Positions 5,451-28,907 of a stretch of DNA of 64,000 nt are shown here, piece by piece. The notes below the pieces were generated by a model. That model saw nothing but the letters and a program-made list of their open reading frames with translations. It ran no database searches and had not been told where the DNA came from. The DNA is from an uncultured Bacteroidota bacterium (GTDB taxonomy: Bacteria; Bacteroidota; Ignavibacteria; Kryptoniales; JAKASW01): contig OY969815.1 of assembly GCA_963703365.1 (NCBI GenBank), forward strand, positions 1,227,263 to 1,291,262, written 5' to 3'. Positions within the stretch are counted from its first letter, which is position 1. Each line of letters starts with the position of its first letter. Made by a program: the position numbers and the translations under genes.

Positions 5451-5596
5451 TTTGATCCCCTTTTGAAGTAGAATTCAAATTGGGATACTACCGACTTTTT
5501 TCTTTATTATTTCTCTGCAAGAGTTTATCTTGTCAAGCGTTGAAGGCAATACGGAGATCAGTACAACTAATCCAGAAAAAACTGACAACATTGGCA

Positions 5597-6895
5597 ATGC
5601 ATATTGAAAGAGAAATACCGGATAAGATTGTTCTATTCTGTAAAGCTATAATTTTGCTTATTGCCTGTCTATTGAACATCGGTTTCTCTCAAACGAAGTC
5701 CGATACATCAGGGATAAAAGCAAGTTTTCATTTTCAGCAGACCATGATAGAGGAAGCGCATAACAATTTCCCCTCGCCCTACATCGGGAAAAACAGCTTA
5801 CTTCCTAAAGAACCACCGGCGATGTCAGTGACGTCAACGTTCTATTTCGGTCTTTCGTTACCCGGGCTGTTCAATGTCGAAATCGATCCTGAACTTAGCG
5901 GCGGAAAAGGATTGAGCGGGACAGTAGGGATTGCAGGATTCCCGAACGGGGAAATATATCGGGTCGGCGACCCAACCCCAAGACTTGCGCTCGCACGGTG
6001 TTACCTTCAAAGAACTGTCCAGCTTGCCAACGCTGAACAATTGAACATTGTTGCCGGTTTATTCAGTATGGCGGATTATTTCGACGCAAGCACTTACAGC
6101 AACAGCGCTCGAACGCAATTCATGAACTGGGCGATTATGAACGACGGTGCATGGGATTATCCGGCAGACACTCACGGGTATACAGAAGGACTTGTTGCCG
6201 AATACATAAAAGATAAACTCGCACTAAGACTTGCTGCAGTACTGGAGCCGACATCTGCCAACGGACCAGATCTTGATTCCCATATTTCGAAAGCGCATGG
6301 TGAAGCTTTGGAGGGAGAATATGGCTACGACTTACTCAGCCATGACGGCAAGGTGAGACTGCTGTTGTATTTGAACACTGCAAAAATGGGCAATTATAAT
6401 GAAGCGACATACGATTCCATCTACGACCATGACATTACGCTGACCAGACAATATTCGAGGAACAAATACGGATTCGGCATAAACATGGAACAAAGCTTGG
6501 GCGACAACACAGGTACATTCCTTAGAATAGGATGGAATGACGGACAAGACGAGACATGGACATACACGGAGATCGACAGAACTGTTTCAGGCGGAGTGAC
6601 AACAAAAATGCAAATTATCGGGCGTGAGGAAGACAGTTTCGGAGTTGCATTTACGATTGATGGGATTTCCGCCGCTCACCAAGCTTATCTAAACAGCGGA
6701 GGATACGGCTTCTTAATCGGCGACGGCAAATTGCCGCAATATGGATTGGAGAGCATAATGGAAACATACTACCTGTTTCAGCTTAACAAACTACTTGGCA
6801 TTAGCCTCGACTACCAGTTTGTCGTAAACCCGGCATACAACGAGGATCGCGGACCTGTGAATATCTTCAGCATAAGGGAACATTTGGGGTTGTAA
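5597..6895 (+). CDS. Outer-membrane porin, OprB/carbohydrate-porin (MnoP-like) family
   Basis: PELSGGKGLSGTVGIAGFPNGE, RTQFMNW, GAWDYPADT, YL-x-x-GG-x-GFLIGDG-x-L, NPAYN-x-DRGPV motifs; start uncertain (ORF track gives 5480). Confidence 0.8.
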   Translation: MHIEREIPDKIVLFCKAIILLIACLLNIGFSQTKSDTSGIKASFHFQQTMIEEAHNNFPSPYIGKNSLLPKEPPAMSVTSTFYFGLSLPGLFNVEIDPELSGGKGLSGTVGIAGFPNGEIYRVGDPTPRLALARCYLQRTVQLANAEQLNIVAGLFSMADYFDASTYSNSARTQFMNWAIMNDGAWDYPADTHGYTEGLVAEYIKDKLALRLAAVLEPTSANGPDLDSHISKAHGEALEGEYGYDLLSHDGKVRLLLYLNTAKMGNYNEATYDSIYDHDITLTRQYSRNKYGFGINMEQSLGDNTGTFLRIGWNDGQDETWTYTEIDRTVSGGVTTKMQIIGREEDSFGVAFTIDGISAAHQAYLNSGGYGFLIGDGKLPQYGLESIMETYYLFQLNKLLGISLDYQFVVNPAYNEDRGPVNIFSIREHLGL

Positions 6896-7082
6896 GTGGG
6901 AACCATTTCTCATTTCTTGATGGATTAAGCCCTTTGGCCTTTGTGAATATGTCCTTTGCGTAATCTTCATCTCTACATCCTTTGCATGAAATCTTCACCG
7001 CTCTGTGGAGAGTGGAATTAGAGGAAAAAAAGCTAATTCCCTTAAACCATTCTGTGCCCCAATAGCCACTTTTTTCTCGTTC

Positions 7083-7133
7083 TTTACACTTTTTTTACGG
7101 TTTTGACTCTTCTTTTTATACTTCTTTGATTGC
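7083..7133 (+). promoter_or_regulatory. Candidate KdpE-type operator upstream of the PII-porin genes
   Basis: TTTACA-N5-TTTACG … TTTATA; 34/51 ungapped identity to 8680-8730; resembles the E. coli KdpE box TTTATACTTTTTTTACA. Confidence 0.65.
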
Positions 7134-7168
7134 AATACATACCGTGCAGTAATCATATTTTTCTCGTT

Positions 7169-7513
7169 ATGAAAAAGATAGAAGCTATTATCAGACCTGA
7201 AAAGATTTACGATGTCTGCGAGGTGCTCCATGATATGGGCATCTGCGGAATGATCATAACGGAAACGAATGGCAGCGATGTGACAACCGTACAGCATTCT
7301 CTCAGTGAAGAACGTAAAACCGGCATCGCACCACAAATGAAGTTAGTGTTCACTACCGCTGATTCGCTCCTTCAACCGGTTATATCTGTTATTGTTCACG
7401 AGGCCAGGACCGGAAGTGCCGGTGATGGAAGAATCATCGTGTCGTCCATAGAGAAAGTTATCCACGTGGAAGACGAGGAGATCGATGAAAGCGTATTACA
7501 CTGGTTTCAATAA
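7169..7513 (+). CDS. Degenerate PII-family (GlnB/GlnK-like) protein
   Basis: MKKIEAIIRP start and ARTG-x-x-GDG-x-I B-loop; canonical T-loop absent. Confidence 0.85.
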   Translation: MKKIEAIIRPEKIYDVCEVLHDMGICGMIITETNGSDVTTVQHSLSEERKTGIAPQMKLVFTTADSLLQPVISVIVHEARTGSAGDGRIIVSSIEKVIHVEDEEIDESVLHWFQ

Positions 7514-7531
7514 GAAAATAAAGGATCAATT

Positions 7532-8662
7532 ATGAAGAACATTTACATATTGGCTGCAATCGTTGTGGCACTTCTTTTTTCAGTACCGGCATTGGCAGCA
7601 GATTCCACCTCCACCCCTGCTCCAGCTCCGCCGAAAATAACATGGAATGCCTTCGTTGACGTTTACTATACAAGAAACTTCAACGATCCATCCAATCGTA
7701 TGAACGACCTTAGAAATTTCGACATCAACGAAAACCAGATAACACTGAGCCTTGCTGATCTAACAATACAGGAACAAGCACAACCTGTCGGATTCAAAGT
7801 GGAACTTGGCTTTGGTACGACCAGCGACTTTGTTAATACTGCTTCAACATTTGGAACCGTTAGCCCTTCATTAGCAAATGTAATGCAGGCTTATGGTACG
7901 GTCATCGTTCCGATTGGTGCCGGGCTGACTATCGACGCCGGGAAATTCGTGACCCACATGGGAAACGAGGTGATCGTTTCACAAAGCAACTGGAATTACA
8001 GTAGGTCCTATTTATTTGCCTATGCTATTCCGTATTACCACACGGGAGTTCGCTTGACTTATCCCGTAGCAAGCAATCTCTCGGCTACACTTCACATTCT
8101 GGACGGATGGAATTCTGTTATAGATAATAACAAGTTCCTGTCGCTGGGTGGAACGCTGAACTATTCACCTGACTCCACCACCAATATTGTCTTCAACGGC
8201 ATTTGGGGTCACGAAAATATTACCGCAATTGAAAATGGTGCACGAGATGTTTACGATTTCATCGTGACACAGCAATTGTCAGATGCATTCCAAGTTGCTG
8301 TTAATGCTGACTACGGGCAAGCTGGCACAACAAGAGGTCTAGCTTTATGGAAAGGTGTTGCCCTCTACGGCAGATACGCGCTCACATCTAAGTGCGCCCT
8401 CGCCGCACGCGGGGAGGTTTATTATGACCCGTCGTTCGGAGGTTATACCACCGGAGCAGGATTTAGGAAGGCAACATTCCAGGAATACACACTGACGTAT
8501 GAATATCATCCATACGATCCGCTTCTGATACGTATTGAAGCGCGCGACGATTTCGCGAACGGTAAAACGTTTGTGTCCGCAAGTTCATCAGCAGAATTAG
8601 GCTATCCGCCCACAAAGAGTTCGCAGCCGACGCTTACTGTTGGTGTTGTAACATCGTTTTGA
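7532..8662 (+). CDS. Outer-membrane beta-barrel porin (BBP2/DUF1597-like)
   Basis: Signal peptide; FVDVYY, DAGKFVTHMG-x-EVI, NWNYSRSYLF, PYYHTGVR motifs; C-terminal Phe. Confidence 0.85.
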   Translation: MKNIYILAAIVVALLFSVPALAADSTSTPAPAPPKITWNAFVDVYYTRNFNDPSNRMNDLRNFDINENQITLSLADLTIQEQAQPVGFKVELGFGTTSDFVNTASTFGTVSPSLANVMQAYGTVIVPIGAGLTIDAGKFVTHMGNEVIVSQSNWNYSRSYLFAYAIPYYHTGVRLTYPVASNLSATLHILDGWNSVIDNNKFLSLGGTLNYSPDSTTNIVFNGIWGHENITAIENGARDVYDFIVTQQLSDAFQVAVNADYGQAGTTRGLALWKGVALYGRYALTSKCALAARGEVYYDPSFGGYTTGAGFRKATFQEYTLTYEYHPYDPLLIRIEARDDFANGKTFVSASSSAELGYPPTKSSQPTLTVGVVTSF

Positions 8663-8679
8663 GGCGATCGGATGCTGTA

Positions 8680-8730
8680 TTTACAAAATCTTTACGGTTT
8701 CATGGCTCTCTTTTATAGTCTCTTTATTGC
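8680..8730 (+). promoter_or_regulatory. Candidate KdpE-type operator upstream of the kdp operon
   Basis: TTTACA-N5-TTTACG … TTTATA-N5-TTTAT; same spacing as 7083-7133. Confidence 0.7.
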
Positions 8731-8812
8731 CATTGTAGAGTACAACGGTGAAATTAATCTCGCAAAGTTTCAGAAGTATGAATATTAATCTAAACAAAAA
8801 AAGGAGTCTCAA

Positions 8813-8914
8813 ATGGAAATGAATCTTCTGATCTGGTTACCCGCAATGTTTTTATTAGGCATAGCCTTGATGGGATTGTGTTATCTCTTCATGGAAGCCT
8901 GTGAGAAAATCTAA
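8813..8914 (+). CDS. 33-aa membrane peptide upstream of kdpF (MEMNLLIWLPAMFLLGIALMGLCYLFMEACEKI)
   Basis: AAGGAG RBS, one hydrophobic helix, C-E-K-I end; not in the ORF track. Confidence 0.75.
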   Translation: MEMNLLIWLPAMFLLGIALMGLCYLFMEACEKI

Positions 8915-8939
8915 CTTAAAAAAATGAGGTGATCAAGAA

Positions 8940-9020
8940 ATGATCTATTTAACTGCAGTTGTTGCATTGTTTCTTTTCGTTTATCTGGTCGTTGCGCTTT
9001 TAAGGCCTGAAAAGTTTTAA
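8940..9020 (+). CDS. kdpF: K+-transporting ATPase subunit F
   Basis: MIYLTAVVALFLFVYLVVALLRPEKF; YL-x-x-AL-x-x-PE-x-F signature; GAGGT RBS. Confidence 0.92.
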   Translation: MIYLTAVVALFLFVYLVVALLRPEKF

Positions 9021-9060
9021 GCGAAGGATCAGAAATTGAAGCAAACAGGGAGATTATAAA

Positions 9061-10857
9061 ATGACTATTCAAATTTGGTTTTTACCGTTCCTCCTCCTCG
9101 CCACGGCGACACTCTTAGCGTTCCCGCTAAGTCGTTACATGGCGTGGATCATAGAAGGGGATTATAGACCGCCGCGGATTTTTGCGTGGTTTGAGAGGCG
9201 CCTGGACAGCGGATATCAAAACTGGAAACAGTATGTCGGCTCGCTACTGATCTTCAATACTGCGCTTTTCATCTTCGGCTTCATCGTTCTAGCGCTCCAG
9301 CAATGGATGCCGCTTAATCCGATGCAGAGGCCGATGATAGCACCGAGCACTATCTTCAATAGCGTGATTTCCTTTATGACGAATACAAATCTCCAGCACT
9401 ATTCGGGAGATCAGAATTTTTCAAATTTCAGTCAGATTTTCTTTGACATCTCGAATATGTTTATGTCGGCTGCAATAGGTTTGTGTGCCTTGACGGCAAT
9501 CATACGGGCTCTGCGAAGCGATTCACATATAGGAAATTTCTTTTTAGACATGTGGCGCGTATTGATTTATATGTTCATCCCGGCGGCGTTTATCATCAGT
9601 GTGATCTTCATCTCGCAGGGAAGTCCGATGACCCTCCAGAGTGTCTACCACATTGCCGGGCTTGAGTCAAATCAGCAGAATATTATTGTAGGGCCTGTAG
9701 CGGCACTTGAGTCAATTAAGATGCTTGGCACAAATGGAGGCGGTTTCTTTGGAATGAACTCTGCGCATCCATTTGAAAATCCGACTGCGCTTTCAAACTT
9801 CTTCGACACACTATCCATGATGATTTTCCCCTTTGCGCTTGTGCTGATGTACGGCCGCATGCTGAAAAAAATGCGCCATGCTTACATCATTTTTTCCGTG
9901 ATGTTATTTCTAATGGCGGGCACTATCGTTTGGTCGATCTTTTTCGATACATATTCGCCTAACCCGGCATTCACCAGCCACTCCGTATCGCGAACGTATG
10001 AAGTTCCCAGTGCAACTGCGCCGGATGGCAAACGGACTGTGATATTACCCTCAGTAGGTGGATTGCCGGTTGATCAGCATCTCGGCAACCTCGAAGGCAA
10101 GGAAATGCGCTTTGGAACTTCCGCAGGCGCTACGTTTGCCGCACTGACGACAGATGTAACGTGCGGTGCAGTGAATTCTGAACATGACAGCCTAAATCCA
10201 CTTGCGGCGTTGTCGCCAATGGTGGGGATGTGGCTGAACTGCATCTTCGGCGGAAAAGGAGTCGGCATGATTAACATGCTTCTCTTCGTTATAATCGGGA
10301 TTTTCATCGCCGGCATGATGGTTGGACGAACACCGGAATACTTAGGCAAGAAAATCGGCGCGCGTGAAGTGAAGTTAGCAGTTATCGCACTGTTGATTCA
10401 TCCGCTTATGATTCTTATGCCGACAGGCTTATTCGCTGCCACTGACTGGGGAATGAAAGCAGTCAGCAATTCCGGTCCGCACGGACTTTCACAAATGTTT
10501 TATCAGTTCTCGTCCGCGTCGGCGAATAATGGCTCAGCCTTCGATGGTCTGGGAGTTACTTATGGTTTCTACAATAACCCGAGTCCGGCGCCTGAAGCGG
10601 CAGCATGGGACATCGCTGCAGGAATAGTTATGCTGATCAGTCGCTTCATCCCGATAATTGCACCCGTTGCCATGGCTGTCTATCTCGGAAAAAAGAAGAC
10701 TAGCCCGTTTAGTCTTGGGACTTTGCGCATCGATACGTCCACGTTCGGCTATCTTTTATTGGGTACGATTCTTATTATCGGCGCATTACTCTTTCTCCCG
10801 ATTGCAGTGCTCGGGCCGCTTGCTGAGCATTTAGGTCCAATTCCGTTTGGTGGATGA
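9061..10857 (+). CDS. kdpA: K+-transporting ATPase subunit A (copy 1)
   Basis: SFMTNTNLQHYSG, LGTNGGGFF, NSAHPFENP, EGKEMRFG, TCGAVN, GRTPEYLGKKI, SANNGSAF. Confidence 0.96.
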   Translation: MTIQIWFLPFLLLATATLLAFPLSRYMAWIIEGDYRPPRIFAWFERRLDSGYQNWKQYVGSLLIFNTALFIFGFIVLALQQWMPLNPMQRPMIAPSTIFNSVISFMTNTNLQHYSGDQNFSNFSQIFFDISNMFMSAAIGLCALTAIIRALRSDSHIGNFFLDMWRVLIYMFIPAAFIISVIFISQGSPMTLQSVYHIAGLESNQQNIIVGPVAALESIKMLGTNGGGFFGMNSAHPFENPTALSNFFDTLSMMIFPFALVLMYGRMLKKMRHAYIIFSVMLFLMAGTIVWSIFFDTYSPNPAFTSHSVSRTYEVPSATAPDGKRTVILPSVGGLPVDQHLGNLEGKEMRFGTSAGATFAALTTDVTCGAVNSEHDSLNPLAALSPMVGMWLNCIFGGKGVGMINMLLFVIIGIFIAGMMVGRTPEYLGKKIGAREVKLAVIALLIHPLMILMPTGLFAATDWGMKAVSNSGPHGLSQMFYQFSSASANNGSAFDGLGVTYGFYNNPSPAPEAAAWDIAAGIVMLISRFIPIIAPVAMAVYLGKKKTSPFSLGTLRIDTSTFGYLLLGTILIIGALLFLPIAVLGPLAEHLGPIPFGG

Positions 10858-10921
10858 AAGAAGCCAATAATGCAAATCATGCTTCAATAATTTGTGATAA
10901 AAAAATCTTAAGGAGTTAAAC

Positions 10922-13090
10922 ATGAGTGAAGTTCAAAACATAGAACAAAATGCCGAAAAGGTTGTAGGAAGCCTTTCTTCGAAATCAACAAAGCCTCCGC
11001 GTCGTGTTAAGCGGAGGGCGTTGCTCGAGAAAAAGACCGCACTACCTGCGTTTAAGCAGTCGTTCGTAATGCTGCGTCCGGACATACAGTGGAAAAATCC
11101 TGTGATGTTTGTGGTGGAGGTCGGTGCAATATTAACGCTTCTGTATGTGCTGGCAGCGGCATTCGGCAATCAAGTAAGCCAGGTGCCCATAACATATTTC
11201 ATCGCGCTTGACGCATGGCTTTTCCTCACCGTGTTGTTTGCGAACTTCGCAACGGCTCTTGCAGAGGCACGCGGCAAAGCACAGGCAGATTCGCTGAAGA
11301 AGGCACGCCGCGACACGGTAGCGCATCGGTTGATTGCTGCTGGAAAGACCGAGCAGGTTTCCTCGACAGAACTTAAACCCGGCGATCGCGTAGTGGTACA
11401 GGCTGGGCAGATGATACCCGGAGACGGAGAGATCATTGAAGGAATTGCCTCTGTTGATGAGTCTGCGATTACAGGGGAATCCGCACCAGTAATTCGAGCT
11501 GCACATAGCGACGCATCGGGAGTAACCGGCGGAACCTATGTCCTCTCGGATAAGATAGTCGTAGAAATTACTAGCGGTGTAGGTGAATCATTCCTTGATA
11601 GGATGATCGCTCTCGTTGAGGGAGCCATCCGGCAGCGCAGTCCAAACGAGATTGCTCTGACACTCGTCCTATCGGCATTCACGTTGATCTTTTTAATTGT
11701 TGTCGTTCCACTTTGGCCGATGGCATGGAATGCGGAACAATATATGGCGGGCTACCTCGGAATTTCCGAGCCGCTGAAAAGTCTCGGTACGGATGTGCCT
11801 ACTTTGATTGCACTTTTAGTTTGTCTTATTCCGACAACAATCGGAGCGTTGCTTGCAGCGATCGGAATTGCCGGAATGGATCGTGCCTTGCAGGCAAATA
11901 TCATATCCAAGAGTGGAAAAGCAGTCGAGTTGGCAGGCGACATAGATGTCGTGTTGCTTGATAAGACCGGGACAATCACACTTGGAAATAGACATGCAAC
12001 CACATTCTTCCCAGTAGGAAGGTACAAAGAGGCAGATCTGGCGCGGCTCGCTGCACTGTCGTCTGCTGCTGATGAAACCCCGGAAGGCAAAAGCATAGTG
12101 AAGCTTTACGAAAAGCAAAGCAAAGATCCGGTCAATGTGCCGACAGATTCGGTGTTTGTGCCATTTACCGCACAGACTCGTATGAGCGGCATCGACTTCT
12201 CAGGTGGGCGACAGATACGAAAAGGAGCCCCGGATGCAGTGTTTCAATTTGTTCAGGATAATCATGGTGCAGTTCCTTCTGAGATTAATTCAATAATCAA
12301 CGATGTCGCCAGAAAGGGTGCGACTCCTTTAGTTGTGGCAGACGACTCTCATGTAGTTGGCGTGATCTCTCTTGAGGATATATTGAAGCCTAACATGAAA
12401 GAGCGATTTGACCAGTTGAGAAAGATGGGTCTGCGAACCGTAATGATAACCGGCGACAACCCTATTACTGCTGCGGCTATTGCGGCGCAGGCTGGAGTTG
12501 ATGACTATCTTGCGCAAGCGACACCCGAAACAAAACTTGAGTTTATACGAAAAGAACAAGCTGAGGGGAAACTCGTAGCCATGATGGGTGACGGCACGAA
12601 CGACGCGCCAGCTCTTGCTCAGGCCGACGTTGCATTGGCGATGAATGCGGGTACGCAGGCAGCTAAGGAAGCAGCTAACATGGTCGATCTCGACAGCGAT
12701 CCGACAAAATTGCTCGAAGTCGTTCATGTCGGGAAACAGCTTTTAATAACCCGAGGCGCTTTGACGACTTTTTCGATAGCAAATGATGTCGCGAAGTACT
12801 TCGCAATCATACCCGCACTTTTTGCTGGCACGCTGCCGTGGTTGAAAGCAGTTGATATCATGAACCTGCATTCACCGACATCTGCCATTTTGTCTGCGGT
12901 CATATTCAATGCTTTGATTATTCCTGCATTGATTCCGGTGGCACTTAAAGGTGTCAAGTACCGCATCATGGGTGCGGATGATTTGCTTAAGAGAAACCTG
13001 TTTAACTGGGGACTCGGAGGAGTCATTCTGCCGTTCATTGGCATCAAATTGATCGATATGATCATGGTAGCTTTACATTTAGTGAGTTAA
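10922..13090 (+). CDS. kdpB: K+-transporting P-type ATPase subunit B
   Basis: [45 protein letters not shown]. Confidence 0.97.
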
Positions 13091-13102
13091 GGTTTAATAA
13101 AA

Positions 13103-14134
13103 ATGGAGGACATGAAAATGTTTAAGATTATTTCGAAAAGTTTCCTGCTTCTGCTATTCGCGGTGGTTATATGCTGCATCATTTATCCACTTGTATTATT
13201 GGCAATTGGACAGGGCTTCTTCCCATTCCAGGCTAATGGCAGCATGGTGAATGGTCCAGATGGGAAGCCCGTCGGTTCACTGTTGATAGCGCAGCCGTTT
13301 ACCAAGGATGAGTATTTCCAGCCACGCCCATCTGCGGCGTCGTATGATGGAACGGCGTCATCATCGTCTGCCTTGGCGGCGTCCAACTATGCACTGCGTG
13401 ACCGCGTGGCCCGCACGCTTGGCCCGATAGTGAAGTATGCTGATGGACCCAGATCAGGACAACTTGTTGCACCTGATATCGAAAACTGGTTCCAACATGA
13501 TACGTACCAGAGTAGTCCACATATAGTTGCTCAATGGGCATCCATGCATACATCAGACGCTCAAGCATGGGTTAACACGGATTCGCTGCATACAGCATAC
13601 ATAAGCGATTGGGAGAAGACTCATCCTGATATCGTATCGCAGTTTATAAAGAGCAACCCGAGCACGCCGCAGCCGGCACCGTCTGATCTTGCTGTGACTT
13701 TTTTCCAAAGTTTCTCAAATGACAATCCAGGCAAGTTTCTCTCAGCCATAACTGATACCGGTGCTGATGGCAAACCTGAAACAGTAATCAAACCTATCAG
13801 CACCGGTTCAGACATCCAGTCGATCTTTTTTGATATGTGGCGGCTGGATCATCCGAACGACAGTCTTCAGAATATTCCCGGTGACATGGTCACCACGTCT
13901 GGTTCCGGTCTCGACCCTGATATCACGATGCAGAATGCCAACTACCAGCTCGATCGCGTTTCTTCAAAATGGGCTGCCGATTTGAAACGGAATCCTGTTG
14001 AAATCCAAAAAGTGATTGGAGATATCCTGGAGAAGAATTCATTTGCTCCTCTTGACGGATTGGCAGGAGAGAAGATGGTCAATGTTCTTCAAGTCAATCT
14101 TGCTCTTCGCAGTCAGTTTGGAACACCGCAATAG
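13103..14134 (+). CDS. kdpC: K+-transporting ATPase subunit C with a large internal insertion (343 aa)
   Basis: FPFQANGS, GS-x-LIAQ-x-F-x-x-x-x-YFQPRPSA, DMVTTSGSGLDP, VNVL-x-VNLAL. Confidence 0.9.
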   Translation: MEDMKMFKIISKSFLLLLFAVVICCIIYPLVLLAIGQGFFPFQANGSMVNGPDGKPVGSLLIAQPFTKDEYFQPRPSAASYDGTASSSSALAASNYALRDRVARTLGPIVKYADGPRSGQLVAPDIENWFQHDTYQSSPHIVAQWASMHTSDAQAWVNTDSLHTAYISDWEKTHPDIVSQFIKSNPSTPQPAPSDLAVTFFQSFSNDNPGKFLSAITDTGADGKPETVIKPISTGSDIQSIFFDMWRLDHPNDSLQNIPGDMVTTSGSGLDPDITMQNANYQLDRVSSKWAADLKRNPVEIQKVIGDILEKNSFAPLDGLAGEKMVNVLQVNLALRSQFGTPQ

Positions 14135-14201
14135 CCTGCGGTTTGCTTATAGTAAAGTTCTTTAAGAAATATGGCATATAAGTTTTACAAAACAGAGAGT
14201 C

Positions 14202-14232
14202 GAAGCGTGCCTTCCGGCTCGCGGCACGCTTC
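14202..14232. other. 10-bp-stem hairpin between kdpC and the second kdpA
   Basis: GAAGCGTGCC-N11-GGCACGCTTC; no U tract on the + strand. Confidence 0.5.
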
Positions 14233-14433
14233 AATATATTGAGATCCGCCCTGGTATGTTCTATCCAAGGGAGATGGATAGAAAGAAAGTATCGAAGGAT
14301 CCATTGAGCCATCAGGAATAGCTTCGTTAGGTTTTGACATAGTAAGGTTTTGTAAGTGACGGCAGCTTGGATTAGAAAGTATACACGCTTTCGTTGCTAC
14401 GAACGTTTTAAAACAAAATAAGGAGCTATTAAA

Positions 14434-16281
14434 ATGTTTGGTTCAATTGGTTTCTTCGGACAGACATGGTTGTTGCCTACCGCAATTCTCATTGTCACGG
14501 CGGTGCTTGCTTTTCCGCTCGGCCGTTATTTGGCCTGGATAATGAACGGGAAATACAAACCTCTGCCGTTCTTTGAGTGGTTCGAAAAGCGCTTGAACAG
14601 CGGACCGCAGAACTGGAAGCAGTACGTCGGCTCAATGCTTATTTTCAACACCGTACTTTTTGTCTTCGGATTCATTGTCCTTTCGCTTCAACCGTTGATG
14701 CCGCTGAACCCAAGCGGCAAAACGCTTCTCGCACCGACCACGATACTTCATACAGTCATATCCTTCATGACAAATACGGACTTGCAACATTATTCCGGCG
14801 ACCAACATCTATCTAACTTCAGCCAGATATTTTTCTGTCTCACTAACTTCTTCCTGTCCGCGTCGATCGGATTCTGCGGCTTGACCGCAATTATCCGGGC
14901 ATTGCGAAGCGATTCCCATCTTGGGAACTTCTTCGTAGACATGTGGCGTGTTGTCGTTTACATGTTTCTTCCTATTTCTTTTGTGCTCGGATTGGTATTC
15001 CTGCAACAGGGAAGTCCGATGACATTGCAAAGCTCACATCAAGTTTCAACTCTTGAGTCTACAGCTATGGGGCTCAATAGCGATGGTTCCGCTAAACCTC
15101 AGAATATCGTAGTCGGACCTTTGGCGGCGTTTGTGCCGATGAAACAGCTCGGAACGAACGGTGGCGGGTTCTATGGAATGAACTCTGCTCATCCGTTTGA
15201 GAACCCGACCGCGCTCACAAATTTCCTGTCATGCGTCGCGATGATGCTCTTTCCTTTTTCGCTCGTGTTTATGTACGGGCGAATGCTGGGACGGTTGAAA
15301 CACGGCTATGTCATCTTTTCTGTAATGATGACCCTGATGATAGGAACAATTGTTTGGTCTGTTTACTTTGACACATTGAAACCAAATCCTGGGTTGACAG
15401 GCCAAGCTGTTACAAGAACGTATGAAGTTTCAAGTGCCACTGCTCCCGGCGGCAAACGAAGTGTAATATTGCCGGCAGTGTCAAGTCTGCCTGTCGATCA
15501 ACATCTCGGAAATCTCGAAGGTAAGGAAATGCGGTTCGGTACTTCGGCGGGCGCGACATTTGCCGCGTTGACTGTTGACGTGACCGACGGTGCAGTGAAC
15601 TGCGAACATGACAGCATGAACCCGATTGCAGGTATATCGCCCATGGTTGGAATGTGGCTGAACTGCATTTTCGGTGGAAAAGGAGTCGGAATGATAAACA
15701 TGCTCCTATTTATCATACTCGGGATATTCATTGCAGGTATGATGGTCGGTAGGACGCCGGAGTACCTCGGAAAGAAAATCGGTCTCAAAGAGGGAAAGCT
15801 CGTTGTATTAGCTATCCTAGTTCACCCACTCATGATACTCATGCCTACAGGTCTGTTTGCAGCCACGGACTGGGGAATGAAAGCTGTCGCCAATCCTGGT
15901 CCGCATGGCTTCTCTGAAATGTTTTACCAATTCTCATCAGCCTCAGCAAATAACGGCTCTGCTTTCGATGGTCTCGGAGTGACATACGGTTTCTATAACA
16001 ACCCAAGCCCTGGACCGGAAGCAGCCGCATGGGACATTGCTACGGCTATTGTCATCATAATCAGCCGGTTCATACCTATAATAGCTCCGACTGCCATGGC
16101 AGCATATCTTGGTAGTAAGAAGTCAAGTCCGTTTGGGTTAGGAACACTCCGTACCGACACTCCAACATTCGCGTTCTTGTTGCTCGGGACAGTTTTGATA
16201 ATTGGAGCGCTCCTCTTTCTTCCGATTGCAGTCCTTGGACCGCTTGCAGAGCACCTCGGACCTATTCCGTTTGGCGGGTAA
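14434..16281 (+). CDS. kdpA: K+-transporting ATPase subunit A (copy 2, altered filter motifs)
   Basis: Full-length paralog of 9061-10857, but with TNTDLQ and VTDGAV; AAGGAG RBS. Confidence 0.95.
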   Translation: MFGSIGFFGQTWLLPTAILIVTAVLAFPLGRYLAWIMNGKYKPLPFFEWFEKRLNSGPQNWKQYVGSMLIFNTVLFVFGFIVLSLQPLMPLNPSGKTLLAPTTILHTVISFMTNTDLQHYSGDQHLSNFSQIFFCLTNFFLSASIGFCGLTAIIRALRSDSHLGNFFVDMWRVVVYMFLPISFVLGLVFLQQGSPMTLQSSHQVSTLESTAMGLNSDGSAKPQNIVVGPLAAFVPMKQLGTNGGGFYGMNSAHPFENPTALTNFLSCVAMMLFPFSLVFMYGRMLGRLKHGYVIFSVMMTLMIGTIVWSVYFDTLKPNPGLTGQAVTRTYEVSSATAPGGKRSVILPAVSSLPVDQHLGNLEGKEMRFGTSAGATFAALTVDVTDGAVNCEHDSMNPIAGISPMVGMWLNCIFGGKGVGMINMLLFIILGIFIAGMMVGRTPEYLGKKIGLKEGKLVVLAILVHPLMILMPTGLFAATDWGMKAVANPGPHGFSEMFYQFSSASANNGSAFDGLGVTYGFYNNPSPGPEAAAWDIATAIVIIISRFIPIIAPTAMAAYLGSKKSSPFGLGTLRTDTPTFAFLLLGTVLIIGALLFLPIAVLGPLAEHLGPIPFGG

Positions 16282-16318
16282 AGTCTATGATAAGGACTAT
16301 TAACACGAAAGCCTTGCC

Positions 16319-16627
16319 TTGCGTCAGTTAGCATTCTTGATAACTGCGGCTTTGTTGGAAGTCGGAGGAGATGCGTTGGTAAGGTGGGGATTGAAAGGTG
16401 GCCGCATCTTAGGTTTTGTCCTGGGCGCGGTCACCCTTTTTGCTTATGGTGTGATTGTGAATACACCGAAGTGGGATTTCGGGAGGTTGCTTGGAATCTA
16501 TATCGCAATCTTTTTCGTCGTATCTCAAGTTCTATCGGTTGTTGTTTTCCGCGAGGGACTTCGTGTCCAGACGTTAATAGCTGGTGTTCTCATCTCTTCA
16601 GGCGGAATTATCCTAACTTTTTTTTGA
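16319..16627 (+). CDS. Small 4-TM membrane protein, SMR/YnfA-like
   Basis: AALLEVGGDA with the TM1 Glu; FGRLLG-x-YIA-x-FF. Confidence 0.75.
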   Translation: MRQLAFLITAALLEVGGDALVRWGLKGGRILGFVLGAVTLFAYGVIVNTPKWDFGRLLGIYIAIFFVVSQVLSVVVFREGLRVQTLIAGVLISSGGIILTFF

Positions 16628-16749
16628 AGTTTGGTAATTGGAGGCCCCAACGGTATTCAGATCAAGATTGAAATTAGGAATGATGTCACTAGGTGGACTC
16701 TAATAGGGAACAGGCTTATGGGGTTTGCACCCAAAAAGGAGAATAGATA

Positions 16750-16965
16750 ATGGCTAAGATGGTAGGGCAATCTGAACAAGGGTTTGTTTTTAAGGAACTG
16801 GAAGTGATGGATAAGGATATTAGGGAACTTGTGTACATTTATCGTGACGTTCTGAAGACCGGGCACATGAATATTCCAAGGCTGGTACAATTACAGCTTA
16901 TGCAATTGCAGATGTTGCGAGCGCTCAAAAACATCGAAAGCTTGCTATATCTTTATAAGGACTGA
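16750..16965 (+). CDS. Hypothetical 71-aa protein
   Basis: Strong AAGGAG RBS and ATG; no recognisable motif. Confidence 0.45.
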   Translation: MAKMVGQSEQGFVFKELEVMDKDIRELVYIYRDVLKTGHMNIPRLVQLQLMQLQMLRALKNIESLLYLYKD

Positions 16966-17063
16966 CAATTATAAAGTTTCTTTGTCGAATAACCTAAAGC
17001 GAGGATTTACACATAAGTTTTGTGAATCTGCTCTCCCGAATTGAGAATAATTCCTTTTCTTCT

Positions 17064-20000
17064 TCAGGCTTTCAACACTTCATGCACTTTCTTTGCAAGT
17101 ACATAAGGAGTGAATGGCTTTTGGATGAAGTCAATGCCCTCATCCAACACTCCTTGGTGTGCAATGACGTCTGCAGTGTAGCCCGACATGAAGATAGTCT
17201 TAATGTTAGGCTTTATAGTTTGGATTGTATCTCGAAGCTCTTTCCCGTTCATCGTGGGCATGATAACATCCGTCAGGAGCAAATGTATCTCACTCTCGTA
17301 GGTTTCGCAGAGCAGGATGCCCTCTTCCGGATTCAACGCAGTGAGTACTTTGTAGCCATATTCCTCCAAACTATTCTTGGCAAGTTCGAGCAAGTCGGCC
17401 TGATCCTCAACTATTAGAACCGTCCCACTACCACTTATTGGCTTCTCCATTTGAATTGCTTCAGGCTCTTCAACTTCGCCTTGATAACGCGGCAAGTAAA
17501 TCTTGAACGTCGTTCCTACGCCCATTTCACTGTAAACGTTTATACTTCCACCATTTTGTTTTACGATCCCGTACACGGTTGAGAGTCCAAGCCCCGTTCC
17601 CTGGCCCTTCGATTTCGTCGTGAAGAACGGCTCGAAAATATTCTTCATCGTCTCTTTGCTCATTCCTTTGCCAGTATCCGTAAAGCTTATCACCAGGTAT
17701 TCACCCGAAGAAAAGTCAATGCGGTTCTGAGTGTAAGCTTCATCTATGGAGGCGTTTGATGTTTCAATAGTTATTGTACCTACGTCGTCTATGGCGTCTC
17801 TCGCATTAGTTGCCAGGTTAACTAGTATTTGGTCAAGCTGGGTCTGATCTATTTTTATTTTCCATATATTCTTTTCGGGGAGGAACATCAGCTTTATGTT
17901 TTCCCCAATCAATCTCTGGAGCATTTTCTCGAGCGACTCAATCGCCTTATTTGGGTCTAACACACAGGGGGAAATGATCTCTCTTCGCGCGAACGCAAGT
18001 AGCTGCCTCGTAATATCTGCTCCACGTTTTGCGGCGGAGGCAATGAGCTCAACATAACGGTACACCGGCTCGGCATTATTCATTTTCTTCATTATCAAAT
18101 CGCTATACCCAATGATGACGCCAAGCATGTTGTTATAATCGTGCGCAACACCTCCTGCGAGTCTGCCGATGCCCTCCATCTTTTGTGCTTGTACCAATTG
18201 CTCCTCGAGTTTTTTCCTATCAGATATGTCGTATGCCGAAGCGATTATAGCATGCTTTCCCTGATAGTCTATCGCCGCGCCGCTAAAGTCTATCCATATA
18301 GCCTCTCCGGATTTCTTCATTATCTGGTATTCATAATGTTTCGGGACATCCTTGCCTCCCATGCGTTCCCCCGATCGATTCATTACAAATTCCCGATGGT
18401 CGGGATGAACAATCTCCATGGGAGCTAGCCGATAGAGCTCCTCGGCTGTATAGCCTGACATTTCCAGCGCGGCAGGATTTGCGTAAAGGAATCGTTTGCC
18501 ATCGTGGATCCAGATGGCTGCTGCCGAACCTTCAACGAGGCCGCGGAACTTTTCTTCGCTTTCACGCAGTGCGATCTCTGCATTCTTGCGCTCTGTGATG
18601 TCACGATCAATGCCAATCGTGTGTGACTTTCCTCGCCATGTAATCGGCATACCCACATACTCAATAATATTATCCTTTCCATCCGGTCGAATCCACGAGA
18701 AGGAGCCCTGATATACCATTCCCTTAGCAAGGGATTCCAAGCGATTGATATTTGCCGTGTCTTCGAGTGTTATCTGGAGTCCTAGCGTGCTTCCGAGCTG
18801 GAGCAGTTCCTCGCGACTTCGGCCTGCCATGGCAGCGTACCGTTCATTACACTCGATGAGTCTTCTCTTATAGGGATCAGGATCTTCGATGTAAATGCTA
18901 ATGCCGTCAAACACATTCTCAAACACCATGCGAAACCTCTGTTCTGACTCCCGAACCTTTTCCTCCGAGAGTTTGCGCTCGGTGATGTCACGTGAGATCC
19001 CAACGATGCCGGTGATTTCGCCCGCTTGGTCGTGCAATGGCACCTTCGTTACGGAAACCCAAGTGGGAGGGCGGTCAGTCCACAATTCCTGAGTTTCTAC
19101 GTCCACCAGAGGCTTGTGCGTTCTAATTATCTCCTGTTCTTGCTCATAAATTTCCTGTGCACCCTCTTTCGTGAAAAAGTCAAAGTCGGTTTTACCAAGA
19201 AGCTGGTCGACACTGGTCAATCCACGTTTGGCCACCATGGATGCACTCACCCGCGTGAAGTGCCCTTCTGTATCTTTGAAGTAAATGGAGTCCATCGTGT
19301 TCTCCAGAAGAGCATTTAAAAGGTATCGCTCATATGCTAACAGTAACGCAGCCTGTTTCGCATCCGTCACATCTTCATATGTCCCAAGTACGCCGACGAT
19401 CTCACCTTCAGCACTCCTTAAAGGTACCTTGTTTGTCCTGAGCCATCTAATGCCCTTATCGAAGGATTGTGGTTCCTCATAAGCTAATTTTGGAATGCTA
19501 CTCTCGATTACCTGCAGGTCGTCAGCGCGATAAAGTTCAGCCTGCTCACGCCAACCCATCTGAAAATCGTTCTTGCCGATGATTTCACCAGGTGATTCAA
19601 ATCCGGAATCCTTGGCGCAAGGCAAATTGCAGCCAAGATAAACGCCATTCCTATCTTTCCAGAAAACACGCACTGGTACAGTGTCCAAAACTGTTCTCAG
19701 CATTTGCTGCGATTCACGAAGAGCAATCTCTGCATTCTTACGCTTGGTGATGTCGCGATCAATACCAATCACCATCTCATGTCCCCCTATATTGACAATC
19801 GATGTAGAGAACTCGACAAGAAGGATATGTCCATCTTTATGGCGGTGGGGGGTCTCCATGTGGATAGTACCTTCTTGCCTAAGGTTCTTAAAATAGGTGA
19901 TGCGCTCCTCACGTGTTCCCCTTGTTACATTGAGTATATCAATGGACTGGCCGATCAGTTCTTCACGTGTGTAACCATTCATCTTACAGGCTGCTTCATT

Positions 20001-21548
20001 GCAGTCGACGATCGGCCATGAGATGGTTGGATTATTGGGATCGATTAATACGATGGCATCAGGCGAGGCATTGAACAAACCTCGGAATAACTGTTCCCCT
20101 TCACGCAGCGCTTTCTCTGCGCGCTTGCTCTCAGTAATATCGTGTACTGACCCGACAAGATGCGTACATCGTCCTCCAGCGTCAAGAACAGGGGCAATAC
20201 TTACATCACCGGTCAATTGTCCGTTTGGGTATTCAGAAGTCTCTTCCCATCGGACAATTGAATTCTCTTCAATTGCCTGCCGATATTTTGCCAGAACCAT
20301 CGAAAGAGAGGGCTCGGGGATAATTTCGTTGACCAATTTTCCGACTACCATTTCCTCGTTCAATCCTGTGACGTTACGGAATGCCTGGTTAACCGAAATA
20401 AACCGATAACTGCCGTTGGCCTCAACTGCCAAGCGAAAAATTACATCCCCGACAGTATCGTAGATGGAGGAAAGTTGACGTTCGCTTTTCTGCAATGCTT
20501 CTTCTGCCCGCTTCCGTTCATGCTCAGCTTGGTACATCTTCCGATAGGTGCCGGCCTGTCTGTGACGGTAAGCGTAAGCGGTCGCAGTGACCGAAATGGC
20601 GATGAAGAGGACTACGAGGAGCATCGCTACGCCGCCTCGATACTTTGCCTCGGCAAGAATTTCATTTGCGTCAACTTTCGCGACCATAAACCATGGGGTG
20701 TTCGAAACGGGGCGAAGATCTGCGAGGACTTCCTCTCCTCGATAGTCCTTTCCTTCAAACATTCCGACCTTTCCCAATGCCGCTTGCACCGCCGGTATCG
20801 TTGTTGAGGTGAGGGGCATGCTGAGTGAAAGCGCGGCGCCCGGATTATACCGCAGGTTGTTTAAAAAGACGACATGATCTCCTCTTTTCTCCAGCAGAAG
20901 CGTCTCGGCACTCCGACTTGGTATCGGCCATGAATTAATAAGAGGGTAAAGGAATTTATCTGCATCGCTTCGCAGAACGACGACAGCAGCAGTCTTGCCT
21001 GATTCGCCAAGGATGGGAGCCATGGCGTCTATATGGACTGTTCCGCTTACTCCGCGGAAGAGATCAGTCATTACCGGTTTGCGTTCTAAAACCGCTTCAT
21101 TGAAGGCATCTTTCTCGGATGCATCCATAACAGATGGTGGGAGGCCGGCAGAGACAAGTGTTTGACGGGCTGTATCGAGGATAAATGCGTCGCTGTAGAG
21201 CCCGACCGTGTCTTCCAGATCGAGTCGTTCCTGAACGGATCTGCGGAGTTGCGGATTAGCTGGTGCGTTGACCAAATTAAGAATAGCCCTTGCGTAAAAC
21301 GGACTTCTTGAAAGCACGCTCGCGTCGGCAAGCCGCTCCAAACGCCAGCTTTCGATTTGCCTGACTTTCAGTTCTGCAACAGAGGCTATCTCGTCATACT
21401 TCTCGCGGCGAATTCTGTCTTTCTCTGCGCGGTAGTATAAAAACCCAGCTACGATAAGCGCAATGCTAATGAGAAGCAAAAAGGGAATCCAAATTCGTCG
21501 CATCAGGGATGTACCTTGATTCGTTCGTTCCATGGTCAGCAATTCCAA
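17064..21548 (-). CDS. Membrane hybrid sensor histidine kinase: Cache-like periplasmic domain, about six PAS/PAC domains, HisKA/HATPase and REC
   Basis: Two TM helices; repeated DIT-x-RK PAC ends; GRLAGGVAHDYNN, NLATNARDA, FEPFFTTK, GTGLGL; REC LLLTDVIMP…KPF; true start probably a few codons inside. Confidence 0.93.
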   Translation of the reverse strand: MELLTMERTNQGTSLMRRIWIPFLLLISIALIVAGFLYYRAEKDRIRREKYDEIASVAELKVRQIESWRLERLADASVLSRSPFYARAILNLVNAPANPQLRRSVQERLDLEDTVGLYSDAFILDTARQTLVSAGLPPSVMDASEKDAFNEAVLERKPVMTDLFRGVSGTVHIDAMAPILGESGKTAAVVVLRSDADKFLYPLINSWPIPSRSAETLLLEKRGDHVVFLNNLRYNPGAALSLSMPLTSTTIPAVQAALGKVGMFEGKDYRGEEVLADLRPVSNTPWFMVAKVDANEILAEAKYRGGVAMLLVVLFIAISVTATAYAYRHRQAGTYRKMYQAEHERKRAEEALQKSERQLSSIYDTVGDVIFRLAVEANGSYRFISVNQAFRNVTGLNEEMVVGKLVNEIIPEPSLSMVLAKYRQAIEENSIVRWEETSEYPNGQLTGDVSIAPVLDAGGRCTHLVGSVHDITESKRAEKALREGEQLFRGLFNASPDAIVLIDPNNPTISWPIVDCNEAACKMNGYTREELIGQSIDILNVTRGTREERITYFKNLRQEGTIHMETPHRHKDGHILLVEFSTSIVNIGGHEMVIGIDRDITKRKNAEIALRESQQMLRTVLDTVPVRVFWKDRNGVYLGCNLPCAKDSGFESPGEIIGKNDFQMGWREQAELYRADDLQVIESSIPKLAYEEPQSFDKGIRWLRTNKVPLRSAEGEIVGVLGTYEDVTDAKQAALLLAYERYLLNALLENTMDSIYFKDTEGHFTRVSASMVAKRGLTSVDQLLGKTDFDFFTKEGAQEIYEQEQEIIRTHKPLVDVETQELWTDRPPTWVSVTKVPLHDQAGEITGIVGISRDITERKLSEEKVRESEQRFRMVFENVFDGISIYIEDPDPYKRRLIECNERYAAMAGRSREELLQLGSTLGLQITLEDTANINRLESLAKGMVYQGSFSWIRPDGKDNIIEYVGMPITWRGKSHTIGIDRDITERKNAEIALRESEEKFRGLVEGSAAAIWIHDGKRFLYANPAALEMSGYTAEELYRLAPMEIVHPDHREFVMNRSGERMGGKDVPKHYEYQIMKKSGEAIWIDFSGAAIDYQGKHAIIASAYDISDRKKLEEQLVQAQKMEGIGRLAGGVAHDYNNMLGVIIGYSDLIMKKMNNAEPVYRYVELIASAAKRGADITRQLLAFARREIISPCVLDPNKAIESLEKMLQRLIGENIKLMFLPEKNIWKIKIDQTQLDQILVNLATNARDAIDDVGTITIETSNASIDEAYTQNRIDFSSGEYLVISFTDTGKGMSKETMKNIFEPFFTTKSKGQGTGLGLSTVYGIVKQNGGSINVYSEMGVGTTFKIYLPRYQGEVEEPEAIQMEKPISGSGTVLIVEDQADLLELAKNSLEEYGYKVLTALNPEEGILLCETYESEIHLLLTDVIMPTMNGKELRDTIQTIKPNIKTIFMSGYTADVIAHQGVLDEGIDFIQKPFTPYVLAKKVHEVLKA

Positions 21549-28833: not shown

Positions 28834-28907
28834 TGCGCCTGGAGGGATTCGAACCCCCAACCCTCAGATCCGTAGTCTGATGCTCTATCCAATTGAGCTA
28901 CAGGCGC
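28834..28907 (-). tRNA. tRNA-Arg(ACG), CCA not encoded
   Basis: GCGCCTG acceptor stem, TAGCTCAATTGGATAGAGC D-arm, TCAGA-CTACGGA-TCTGA anticodon arm, GGTTCGAATCC T-arm. Confidence 0.97.

Follow-up and report, generated by a model that had tools for sequence, protein, structure and literature searches.

Kdp, in which a channel-like subunit is joined to a P-type pump, is the textbook example of such a hybrid. The locus described here, which lies in a 64,000-nucleotide stretch of contig OY969815.1 from an uncultured Bacteroidota bacterium (hereafter the window), raises the question of why a single pump of this kind would be encoded with two channel subunits. Two diverged kdpA genes, both open and full length, stand around a single kdpB and a single kdpC at positions 9061-16281, as an earlier note made from the sequence alone had described. 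In the accessible parts of reviews and structure papers, Kdp is treated as a four-subunit complex with one KdpA (PMC10654040, PMC6255902). All genes of the cluster are co-directional, and their positions in the window, established by open reading frame (ORF) and family scans (Pfam and NCBIfam), are as follows:

8819..8914, + strand: peptide X, a single-helix membrane peptide of 31 amino acids (aa); ORF listed from 8813, with a Shine-Dalgarno (SD)-like aaaggag on its 5' side
8940..9020, + strand: kdpF, 26 aa; TIGR02115, 37.4 bits against a cut-off of 26.85
9061..10857, + strand: kdpA1, 598 aa, Asn-type (NC); PF03814, 642 bits; TIGR00680, 519 bits
10922..13090, + strand: kdpB, the P-type ATPase subunit, 722 aa; TIGR01497, 985 bits
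13103..14134, + strand: kdpC, long form, 343 aa; PF02669, matched in two separate stretches
14135..14433, + strand: kdpC-kdpA2 spacer of 299 nucleotides (nt), with hairpins and an SD sequence (aaggag) 8 nt 5' of the ATG
14434..16281, + strand: kdpA2, 615 aa, Asp-type (DD), without an X or kdpF of its own; PF03814, 617 bits; TIGR00680, 515 bits

Both KdpA proteins score above the curated TIGR00680 cut-off of 388 bits. We consider it probable that they are alternative channel subunits serving one pump, whose K+ affinity, pH response or selectivity would be tuned by the choice between them. More specifically, we infer a common KdpB partner for the two proteins and a functional difference between them.

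The two proteins are 74% identical over 606 alignment columns, and their differences extend to the selectivity filter. The four filter loops read TNTN / GTNGGG / VTCG / NNG in KdpA1 and TNTD / GTNGGG / VTDG / NNG in KdpA2. The residues concerned are N110 (AAT, 9388-9390) and C368 (TGC, 10162-10164) in KdpA1, and D116 (GAC, 14779-14781) and D385 (GAC, 15586-15588) in KdpA2; the filter residues and codons reported earlier for both proteins are exact. The Escherichia coli loops with which they had been compared (NTN / TNGGG / SCG / NNG) likewise match the HMMER alignment to KdpA chain 6hra_A, in which D116 aligns with N114 and D385 with C344. Loops 2 and 4 are the same as in E. coli, and loops 1 (N or D at 114) and 3 (C or D at 344) vary. 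In a simulation described in the accessible part of a preprint (bioRxiv 10.1101/2025.03.04.641403), K+ at the main site, S3, is coordinated by carbonyls of N112, T113, T230, S343, C344, N466 and N467. Because D385 aligns with C344, whose carbonyl is one of these, it occupies an S3-forming residue, and D116 lies by alignment one residue above T113, on strand 1. Further substitutions specific to proteins with Asp in both loops (DD; each class is named by its loop-1 and loop-3 residues) adjoin the filter at KdpA2 positions 139, 230, 238 and 266-268, and position 139 follows the loop-1 state: an Asn in the loop goes with Met, an Asp with Leu or Phe. The Asp residues come without any new positively charged residue. 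The base composition of the two genes is equal (0.488 for kdpA2, 0.484 for kdpA1).

Both proteins belong to a tight, discrete subfamily of the Kdp (P1A-type) pump, which we term the long type. It comprises one or two full-length clusters (70% and 61% identical) among 1.84 billion representatives at 50% identity, beyond which the next full-length matches reach at most 43% identity, and on trees it forms a clade with support of 100 on a long branch from the canonical type. The 119 best metagenomic relatives of KdpA2 are 75-91% identical to it. Close relatives are encoded in at least 240 stretches of species-representative genomes and in more than 561 stretches of metagenome contigs, and the genome contigs carry labels from at least 14 phyla. 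Within the genus the long type was found in four of the 25 genomes searched, the window's included. Its hallmarks are peptide X, a KdpC lengthened to about 340 aa and two further insertions, one of about 40 aa in KdpA, ahead of pore helix 3, and one of 16 aa in KdpB, between the third and fourth membrane helices. From our reading of the known topology, the insertions in KdpA, KdpB and KdpC would all be periplasmic.

How unusual are the two Asp residues? For KdpA at large we aligned the 91 full-length proteins (at least 520 aa) found among the 150 best diverse representatives. At the loop-1 position these carry N in 56 cases, D in 22, G in five, T in three, S in three and a gap in two; at the loop-3 position N occurs 34 times, T 26, S 14, C five, A four, D once and E once, the rest being other residues. 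An Asp in loop 1 is thus ordinary for KdpA (22/91), and an Asp in loop 3 is rare (1/91). The long-type set consists of 96 KdpA proteins, of which 92 come from 79 genome loci and two each from the window and from genus relatives, and divides into 33 NC, 32 DC, 29 DD and two DA proteins, so that loop-1 Asp is the majority state of the subfamily (63/96). The 119 metagenomic relatives, a sample biased towards KdpA2, comprise 98 DD, 18 DC, two ND and one NC. The earlier note had singled out KdpA2 for both of its Asp residues; this stands for the one in loop 3, which is rare and defines a clade, and falls for the one in loop 1, which is common. A special role for KdpA2 would also be harder to maintain, the same note held, if NTD and TDG were common in single-copy KdpA. 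Here the outcome is divided, since NTD is common and NTD plus TDG does occur in sole-copy KdpA (a DD protein is often without a second KdpA in its operon), whereas TDG itself is rare.

Phylogenetic trees separate the two filter positions in their behavior. The DD proteins form essentially one clade, which holds 29 DD and one DC in FastTree (support 97) and 13 DD and one DC in an IQ-TREE analysis without the trait columns (Shimodaira-Hasegawa-like approximate likelihood-ratio test, SH-aLRT, 97). The N/D state of loop 1 is labile: ten changes are required on the tree without trait columns, and a single NC clade is rejected by the approximately unbiased (AU) test (delta lnL 337, p = 1.5e-5) for a group defined by its residues, although named after a first tree had been seen. 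The Asn type therefore arose repeatedly. This lability fits the codons, as the path from AAT to GAT or GAC starts with one transition and that from TGC to GAC needs two changes. NTD/TCG lineages are basal in FastTree and the root moved in IQ-TREE; because the two differ, we make no claim about the ancestral filter state.

KdpA1 falls in an NC clade whose sister is the NTD/TCG KdpA of three genus relatives (G001, G006 and G013), and in G001 and G006 that gene is the sole long-type copy. KdpA2 falls in the DD clade, nearest to the proteins of loci L120 (90%) and L044 (88%). Judged from these placements, it is KdpA1 that departs from its nearest relatives at loop 1, and not KdpA2. We had also entertained kdpA2 as a recent tandem duplicate of kdpA1, and rejected this because the two genes sit in different deep clades (DD and NC).

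The survey for the kdpA-kdpB-kdpC-kdpA layout proposed in the earlier note shows that the two-gene arrangement recurs across lineages. The pair sample was drawn with KdpA2 as the query and covers at most 10 kb on each side of a locus, and related genomes within it are not independent. Two long-type kdpA genes accompany a single kdpB-kdpC in the window and in L120, L038, L041, L045, L043 (with L129 and L130), L066, L072, L095, L085, L111 and L199. The layout of L120 is identical to that of the window, X-F-A[NC]-B-C-A[DD]-YnfA; since the same layout is found in this relative, which is about 90% identical, and two kdpA genes in many other loci, we do not regard it as a chance arrangement. Tandem complete long-type operons occur as well (L054, L080, L096, L104, L127, L135, L142, L143 and L169). 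Among the 19 two-copy genomes or loci of the genome set, 15 combine an Asn-type with an Asp-type copy, three combine two Asp-type copies and one combines two Asn-type copies:

Asn+Asp pairs (15), first part: window; L038; L041; L043; L045; L052; L066; L095; L054; L080; L096; L104
Asn+Asp pairs (15), remainder: L072 (DD copy broken at its start); L039 with L118 (Asn copy frameshifted); L079 with L117
Asp+Asp pairs (3): L085; L111; L053 with L116
Asn+Asn pair (1): L093/L094, nearly identical contigs of one bin

All 14 two-copy loci of the metagenome set are likewise Asn+Asp (10 NC+DD, one NC+DA, one NC+DC and two with one loop unread), although at least L123, L124 and L130 of these are the same contigs as L038, L066 and L043. 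Wherever a DD copy has a readable partner, that partner is NC (10 cases in the genome set and 10 in the metagenome set), and these partners come from at least three separate NC lineages; among non-DD copies, loop-1 Asp is as common as Asn (34 DC or DA, 33 NC). In most cases no separate X, kdpF, kdpB or kdpC goes with the accessory copy. Both types occur in the core position behind X-kdpF and in the accessory position, the accessory copy being DD in the window and NC in L066. Pairing in long-type Kdp recurs in many soil and wetland bacteria.

Can the downstream KdpA operate with the shared subunits? Operons that have lost a copy bear on this question. In G013 the upstream Asn-type kdpA is in fragments, and kdpB, kdpC and the downstream kdpA are intact; the remnant (L036, contig G013:C26, 6492-7252) retains residues 1-224 with a frameshift and the last 19-33 residues. 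The arrangement X-F-[kdpA remnant]-B-C-A is found again in L037/L122 and L137, and L064, L065, L097 and L181 have X-F-B-C-A[DD], with a gap between kdpF and kdpB of about 290 nt in the three that were measured. Because it is the sole KdpA of these otherwise intact operons, the downstream protein evidently works with the shared subunits. Sequence divergence between the window and L120 is also informative. Synonymous divergence (dS) is 0.99 for kdpA1, 1.05 for kdpA2, 0.97 for kdpB and 1.14 for kdpC, and the ratio of nonsynonymous to synonymous change (omega) is 0.055, 0.053, 0.050 and 0.076, respectively. From these values we conclude that kdpA2 has descended together with the operon, under the same degree of constraint as kdpA1 and kdpB, which contradicts the relaxed selection that had been raised as a possible objection.

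These data also bear on a competing explanation, in which operon duplication or horizontal gain left behind a superfluous second kdpA, functionally the same as the first, that is kept for a time and then lost. Tandem full operons exist, in many pairs one member is decayed or carries a frameshift, the long type has a patchy distribution in the genus (the four genomes of 25), and identities of 70-80% across phyla suggest transfer, all of which such a history would produce. It accounts poorly for an omega of about 0.05 in both copies, equal to that of kdpB, at a dS of about 1 and with the layout kept; for opposite loop-1 types being paired far more often than same types; for the repeated origin of the Asn type; and for the clustering of DD-specific changes by the filter (positions 230, 238, 266-268 and 385). 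We therefore judge this explanation to be unlikely.

The genome encodes a third KdpA, 128 kb upstream, as an open frame of 585 aa with loops TNTNWQ and SNG that is 41% identical to KdpA2. It belongs to a canonical system with the order kdpC-kdpF-kdpA-kdpB and a KdpC of 196 aa (L119, C1:1092000-1111000, 6324-11040 and 15108-18481), and full-length kdpD and kdpE genes follow 4 kb downstream, past opposite-strand genes for a Ser/Thr kinase and a sulfatase-modifying-factor-like protein. A C-A-B order is seen in L043 as well. KdpA2 might, in principle, pair with this canonical KdpB, or act alone as a channel. Apart from the presence of the canonical kdpCFAB genes, the proposal could draw on the SD sequence of kdpA2 and on its structured spacer, which would allow separate control. 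The spacer (14135-14433) has a minimum free energy of -83.3 kcal/mol (z = -2.7 against shuffles), a 10-bp hairpin at about 14203-14233 and a terminator-like hairpin at 14125-14142; its length is not conserved, being about 150 nt in L120. However, KdpA2 shares only that 41% identity with the canonical KdpA and has the periplasmic insertions of the long type, which fit the long KdpC and KdpB, and the DD type is the sole KdpA of long-type operons elsewhere. Furthermore, E. coli KdpA alone takes up no K+, according to the accessible part of one paper (PMC6255902). Pairing with the distant KdpB, or function as a lone channel, is accordingly very improbable.

Several observations weigh against two functionally distinct channel subunits sharing one pump. 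First, a canonical kdpCFAB-kdpDE set is present in the same genome. Second, the loop-1 Asp may have little effect, because it is common in ordinary KdpA. Third, one member of the pair is often decayed or frameshifted (G013, L037/L122, L137, L072 and L118), and keeping both copies is for this reason not always favored. Fourth, counted conservatively by lineage, the excess of Asn/Asp pairs is modest; Asp+Asp pairs exist (the three listed above), and some NC operons have no partner within the DNA examined (e.g. L183). Fifth, the assembly of both KdpA proteins with one KdpB is read from gene layout, and a search of sequencing runs returned no RNA sequencing run with the locus. Nevertheless, the notion of interchangeable channel subunits with which this work began gains from the recurrent opposite-type pairs, the accessory copies without kdpB and kdpC, and the loss variants; what does not survive of it is the framing of KdpA2 as the odd copy by virtue of loop 1.

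The remaining components of the pump also depart from the usual pattern. Peptide X, the extra peptide remarked on in the earlier note, proves to be conserved before kdpF in long-type operons of many phyla. Of the kdpA copies, 91 have 400 nt or more of DNA on their 5' side; kdpF is present in 71 of these, and X accompanies 65 of the 71 by a strict pattern, with six more variants judged by eye. It lies directly 5' of kdpF in the window and likewise in L038-L115 and L120-L199. The consensus is MNLxIWLPAMFxLGLxxMGLCYLFxxACEKI, in which W6, G14, F24, C28 and I31 are invariant in 34 sequences. X has no match in Pfam or NCBIfam, and the ESM Atlas shows only unnamed 31-aa clusters. In a predicted complex of KdpA1, KdpC, KdpF and X, the interface score (ipSAE) of X is 0.81 over three runs, against 0.00 for the best of three controls; in calibration this mark is reached by 58 of 80 solved complexes and two of 110 mismatched pairs, counts that hold only roughly here. 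The runs agree in at least 98% of contacts, with a predicted local distance difference test (pLDDT) value of 84 for X, which is placed against KdpA1 residues 56-103, 435-439 and 501-537. Because KdpB was not included in the model, X may have been placed on a surface that KdpB covers. The model supports binding of X to KdpA, without showing it, and X is a candidate fifth subunit.

KdpC is enlarged, as had been noticed, to 343 aa by an inserted domain of about 150 aa. This insert splits the PF02669 match (168.8 bits) and the protein falls under the NCBIfam equivalog cut-offs (136 against 152.6 and 158 against 178). An AlphaFold2 (AF2) model shows the insert as a helical and hairpin domain, with a mean pLDDT of 79.4 for the protein and 10-residue block means of 82-96 over residues 111-260. 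By Foldseek the fold core matches E. coli KdpC (E = 5e-5, template-modelling (TM) score 0.57 on the target); the insert has no match in the Protein Data Bank (PDB) by this search, in which only E. coli KdpC chains were matched.

Compared with E. coli KdpB (6hra_B), the window KdpB retains [24 protein letters not shown] and IFNALII, as well as TGES, DKTGT, the M4 site VCLIPTTIG, the M5 Asp/Lys pair and the canonical-site Asn. None of these site motifs varies among 70 long-type KdpB proteins, irrespective of the KdpA class present. Because they equal those of E. coli and because KdpD-type genes flank many long-type operons, a K+-like monovalent cation is the most likely substrate. A divalent cation was considered and rejected, as the KdpB site with its built-in Lys is unchanged.

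From these features we propose that X-kdpF-kdpA1-kdpB-kdpC-kdpA2 encodes an ATP-driven K+ uptake pump of the long Kdp subfamily, and that in it a single KdpB would work with either of two KdpA proteins, alongside KdpF, X and the enlarged KdpC. By analogy with E. coli, the cation would bind in the KdpA filter, pass through the intersubunit tunnel to the canonical site in KdpB, and leave towards the cell interior in the course of the KdpB phosphorylation cycle. Two kinds of complex would then coexist in the cell: an Asn-type complex containing KdpA1, with a filter like that of E. coli, and an Asp-type complex containing KdpA2, with two extra carboxylates at residues flanking S2/S3. The likeliest difference between them would be in apparent K+ affinity and its pH dependence, and possibly in the discrimination of NH4+. 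Asp-type and Asn-type filters should differ in these respects, perhaps including the last, and the direction is not readable from sequence. The accessible part of a study of E. coli mutants gives some guidance (PMC12629597): negative charge at the filter mouth raises apparent affinity, Q116E resembles the wild type, Q116R is much weaker, and Q116H has a pH-dependent Km.

The further features of the window are as follows:

5480..6895, + strand: OprB-family outer-membrane porin gene; PF04966, 103 bits
7169..7513, + strand: P-II-like gene; PF00543; the listed ORF starts at TTG 7130, and ATG 7169 fits the family start
7532..8662, + strand: BBP2 (OmpL-like) beta-barrel porin gene; PF07642, 269 bits
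16319..16627, + strand: gene for a YnfA/UPF0060-like small membrane protein; weak family matches
17064-21548, - strand: hybrid sensor kinase, 1494 aa, with dCache, at least five PAS, HisKA, HATPase and receiver domains
28834-28907, - strand: tRNA gene; Rfam, gathering threshold

At the gathering threshold Rfam matched nothing in the kdp region, the tRNA being the only match in the window, and a scan for promoters and terminators found no more than in shuffled sequences (20 against 18.7 and 12 against 11.9). No kdpD or kdpE adjoins the window operon; the hybrid kinase is convergent to the kdp cluster and not KdpD-type. Where long-type operons elsewhere have KdpD-type flanks, these comprise full KdpD plus KdpE, kinase-less KdpD N-domains, or pairs of a sigma-54 activator and a kinase, domain contents that are confirmed for a few loci only. 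On Syntrophales contigs, a kinase-less KdpD N-domain plus Usp fused to PTS EIIA-2 directly follows long-type kdpC (L056, 11419-13098), and a sigma-54 activator and a HAMP-PAS kinase lie upstream. An OprB porin homologue is found near long-type kdp genes in the genus relatives G001 and G006, and a BBP2 homologue in 20 of the 82 clustered sources (79 genome loci, the window and two genus loci). YnfA-like homologues follow DD kdpA genes in L120 (9538-9837, 85%) and L044 (8203-8508, 68%), the two closest relatives; the gene is also seen in L034, and in G001 two copies flank the kdp operon.

The P-II-like gene has a place in a further interpretation, in which the DD-type KdpA2 admits NH4+ or another K+-sized monovalent cation, so that KdpA1 would form a K+ pump and KdpA2 an ammonium or broad-specificity pump, perhaps under a P-II-like protein. 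The filter Asp mutant G232D of E. coli lowers affinity and gives coupled transport of Rb+ and NH4+, not Na+, and KdpB is promiscuous, accepting both of the former, as the accessible text of the same mutant study has it (PMC12629597). The position of D385 at a residue whose carbonyl forms S3, and the rarity of Asp there in KdpA at large, are likewise in keeping with altered selectivity. In addition, a canonical KdpA is retained in 20 of the 30 genomes that carry a long-type system, an observation that speaks against simple redundancy, and P-II-like genes recur just upstream of long-type kdp genes in several phyla (L035, L036, L044, L068, L080, L091, L098, L109, L168, L180 and L199). Against this, G232 is a different position from N114 or C344, DD operons are flanked by genes for KdpD-type K+ sensors just as others are, and operons with DD as their only KdpA type have the same KdpB site motifs as the remaining operons. 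Most loci lack the P-II-like gene, and no adjacent amtB or gln genes recur in the neighbor clustering. The window gene itself matches PF00543 (51.8 bits against a cut-off of 25) and scores far below the NCBIfam GlnB/GlnK models (60 against 202 and 59 against 181), and scores at the other loci are mostly weak and not GlnB/GlnK-like. The T-loop region of the window gene, judged by eye against the GlnB motif, differs, and is not GlnK-like. P-II-like proteins may be pump regulators, yet we consider it quite unlikely that KdpA2 serves ammonium. If true, this would be the first primary ATP-driven ammonium pump, with P-II-like proteins linking it to nitrogen status, and the first P-type ATPase to have its substrate determined by exchange of a channel subunit.

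The tuning of a K+ pump by two alternative KdpA subunits thus remains the interpretation that we favor. What is new in this system is the subfamily itself, with X, the long KdpC and the periplasmic insertions, together with the recurrent Asn/Asp pairing and the clade-defining loop-3 Asp, and not the loop-1 Asp as such. Our literature search, for which subscription papers were mostly outside reach and older N114 or C344 mutant data may exist, returned no account of paired kdpA genes or kdpA paralogues, of a subfamily within Kdp or of an additional subunit. These findings add a widespread, tight subfamily, distinguished by a fifth conserved component, a membrane peptide, and by a periplasmic KdpC of much greater size. 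They add, too, a design, seen repeatedly, that provides a single ATPase with genes for two channel subunits whose filter residues are not the same. They also add a natural, repeated Asn/Asp switch at loop 1 and a clade-defining Asp at a residue of the main K+ site; such natural variants offer direct tests of how the filter controls affinity, pH dependence and K+/NH4+ discrimination. Moreover, the system is a lead on K+ supply in bacteria of ion-poor soils and wetlands.

The nearest known system is E. coli KdpFABC (5mrw, 6hra and 7nnl), with which the window operon shares the four KdpA filter loops, the KdpB site motifs and matches to all four subunit families, that of KdpC resting on Pfam and the fold core and lying below the NCBIfam equivalog cut-offs. 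It differs in having two kdpA genes for one kdpB and one kdpC, a fifth gene (X), a KdpC of 343 aa with an inserted domain against about 190 aa, insertions of about 40 aa in KdpA and 16 aa in KdpB, and no kdpDE beside the operon. The window KdpA proteins are about 40% identical to the E. coli type, with loop 1 reading TNT[N/D]LQH rather than TNTNWQS.

Among other pumps, small single-helix peptides like X are represented by FXYD/gamma, sarcolipin and phospholamban, to which X has no sequence relation. Unlike subunits of the FXYD and sarcolipin kind, X is placed on KdpA rather than on the ATPase subunit, in a model from which KdpB was absent. The long KdpC is an enlarged extracytoplasmic subunit as is the beta subunit of the Na,K-ATPase, again without sequence relation, and KdpC has been likened to beta subunits in the accessible parts of two papers (PMC6255902, PMC10654040).

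A parallel to the paired KdpA proteins is offered by Trk, which, unlike Kdp, involves no P-type pump. TrkG and TrkH of E. coli are channel-like, belong to the same superfamily as KdpA, and both use TrkA; their genes are not in one operon. They too are paralogous ion-selecting subunits with distinct transport activities in one organism, as reported in the accessible part of one study (PMC9898762). Finally, some genomes carry two versions of the pump outright, and the present arrangement stands apart from these. Two complete kdp operons in one genome are reported for cyanobacteria such as Anabaena. In the window and at least ten other distinct loci, by comparison, the second kdpA comes without a further kdpB or kdpC, and paired long-type copies differ systematically at filter loop 1.

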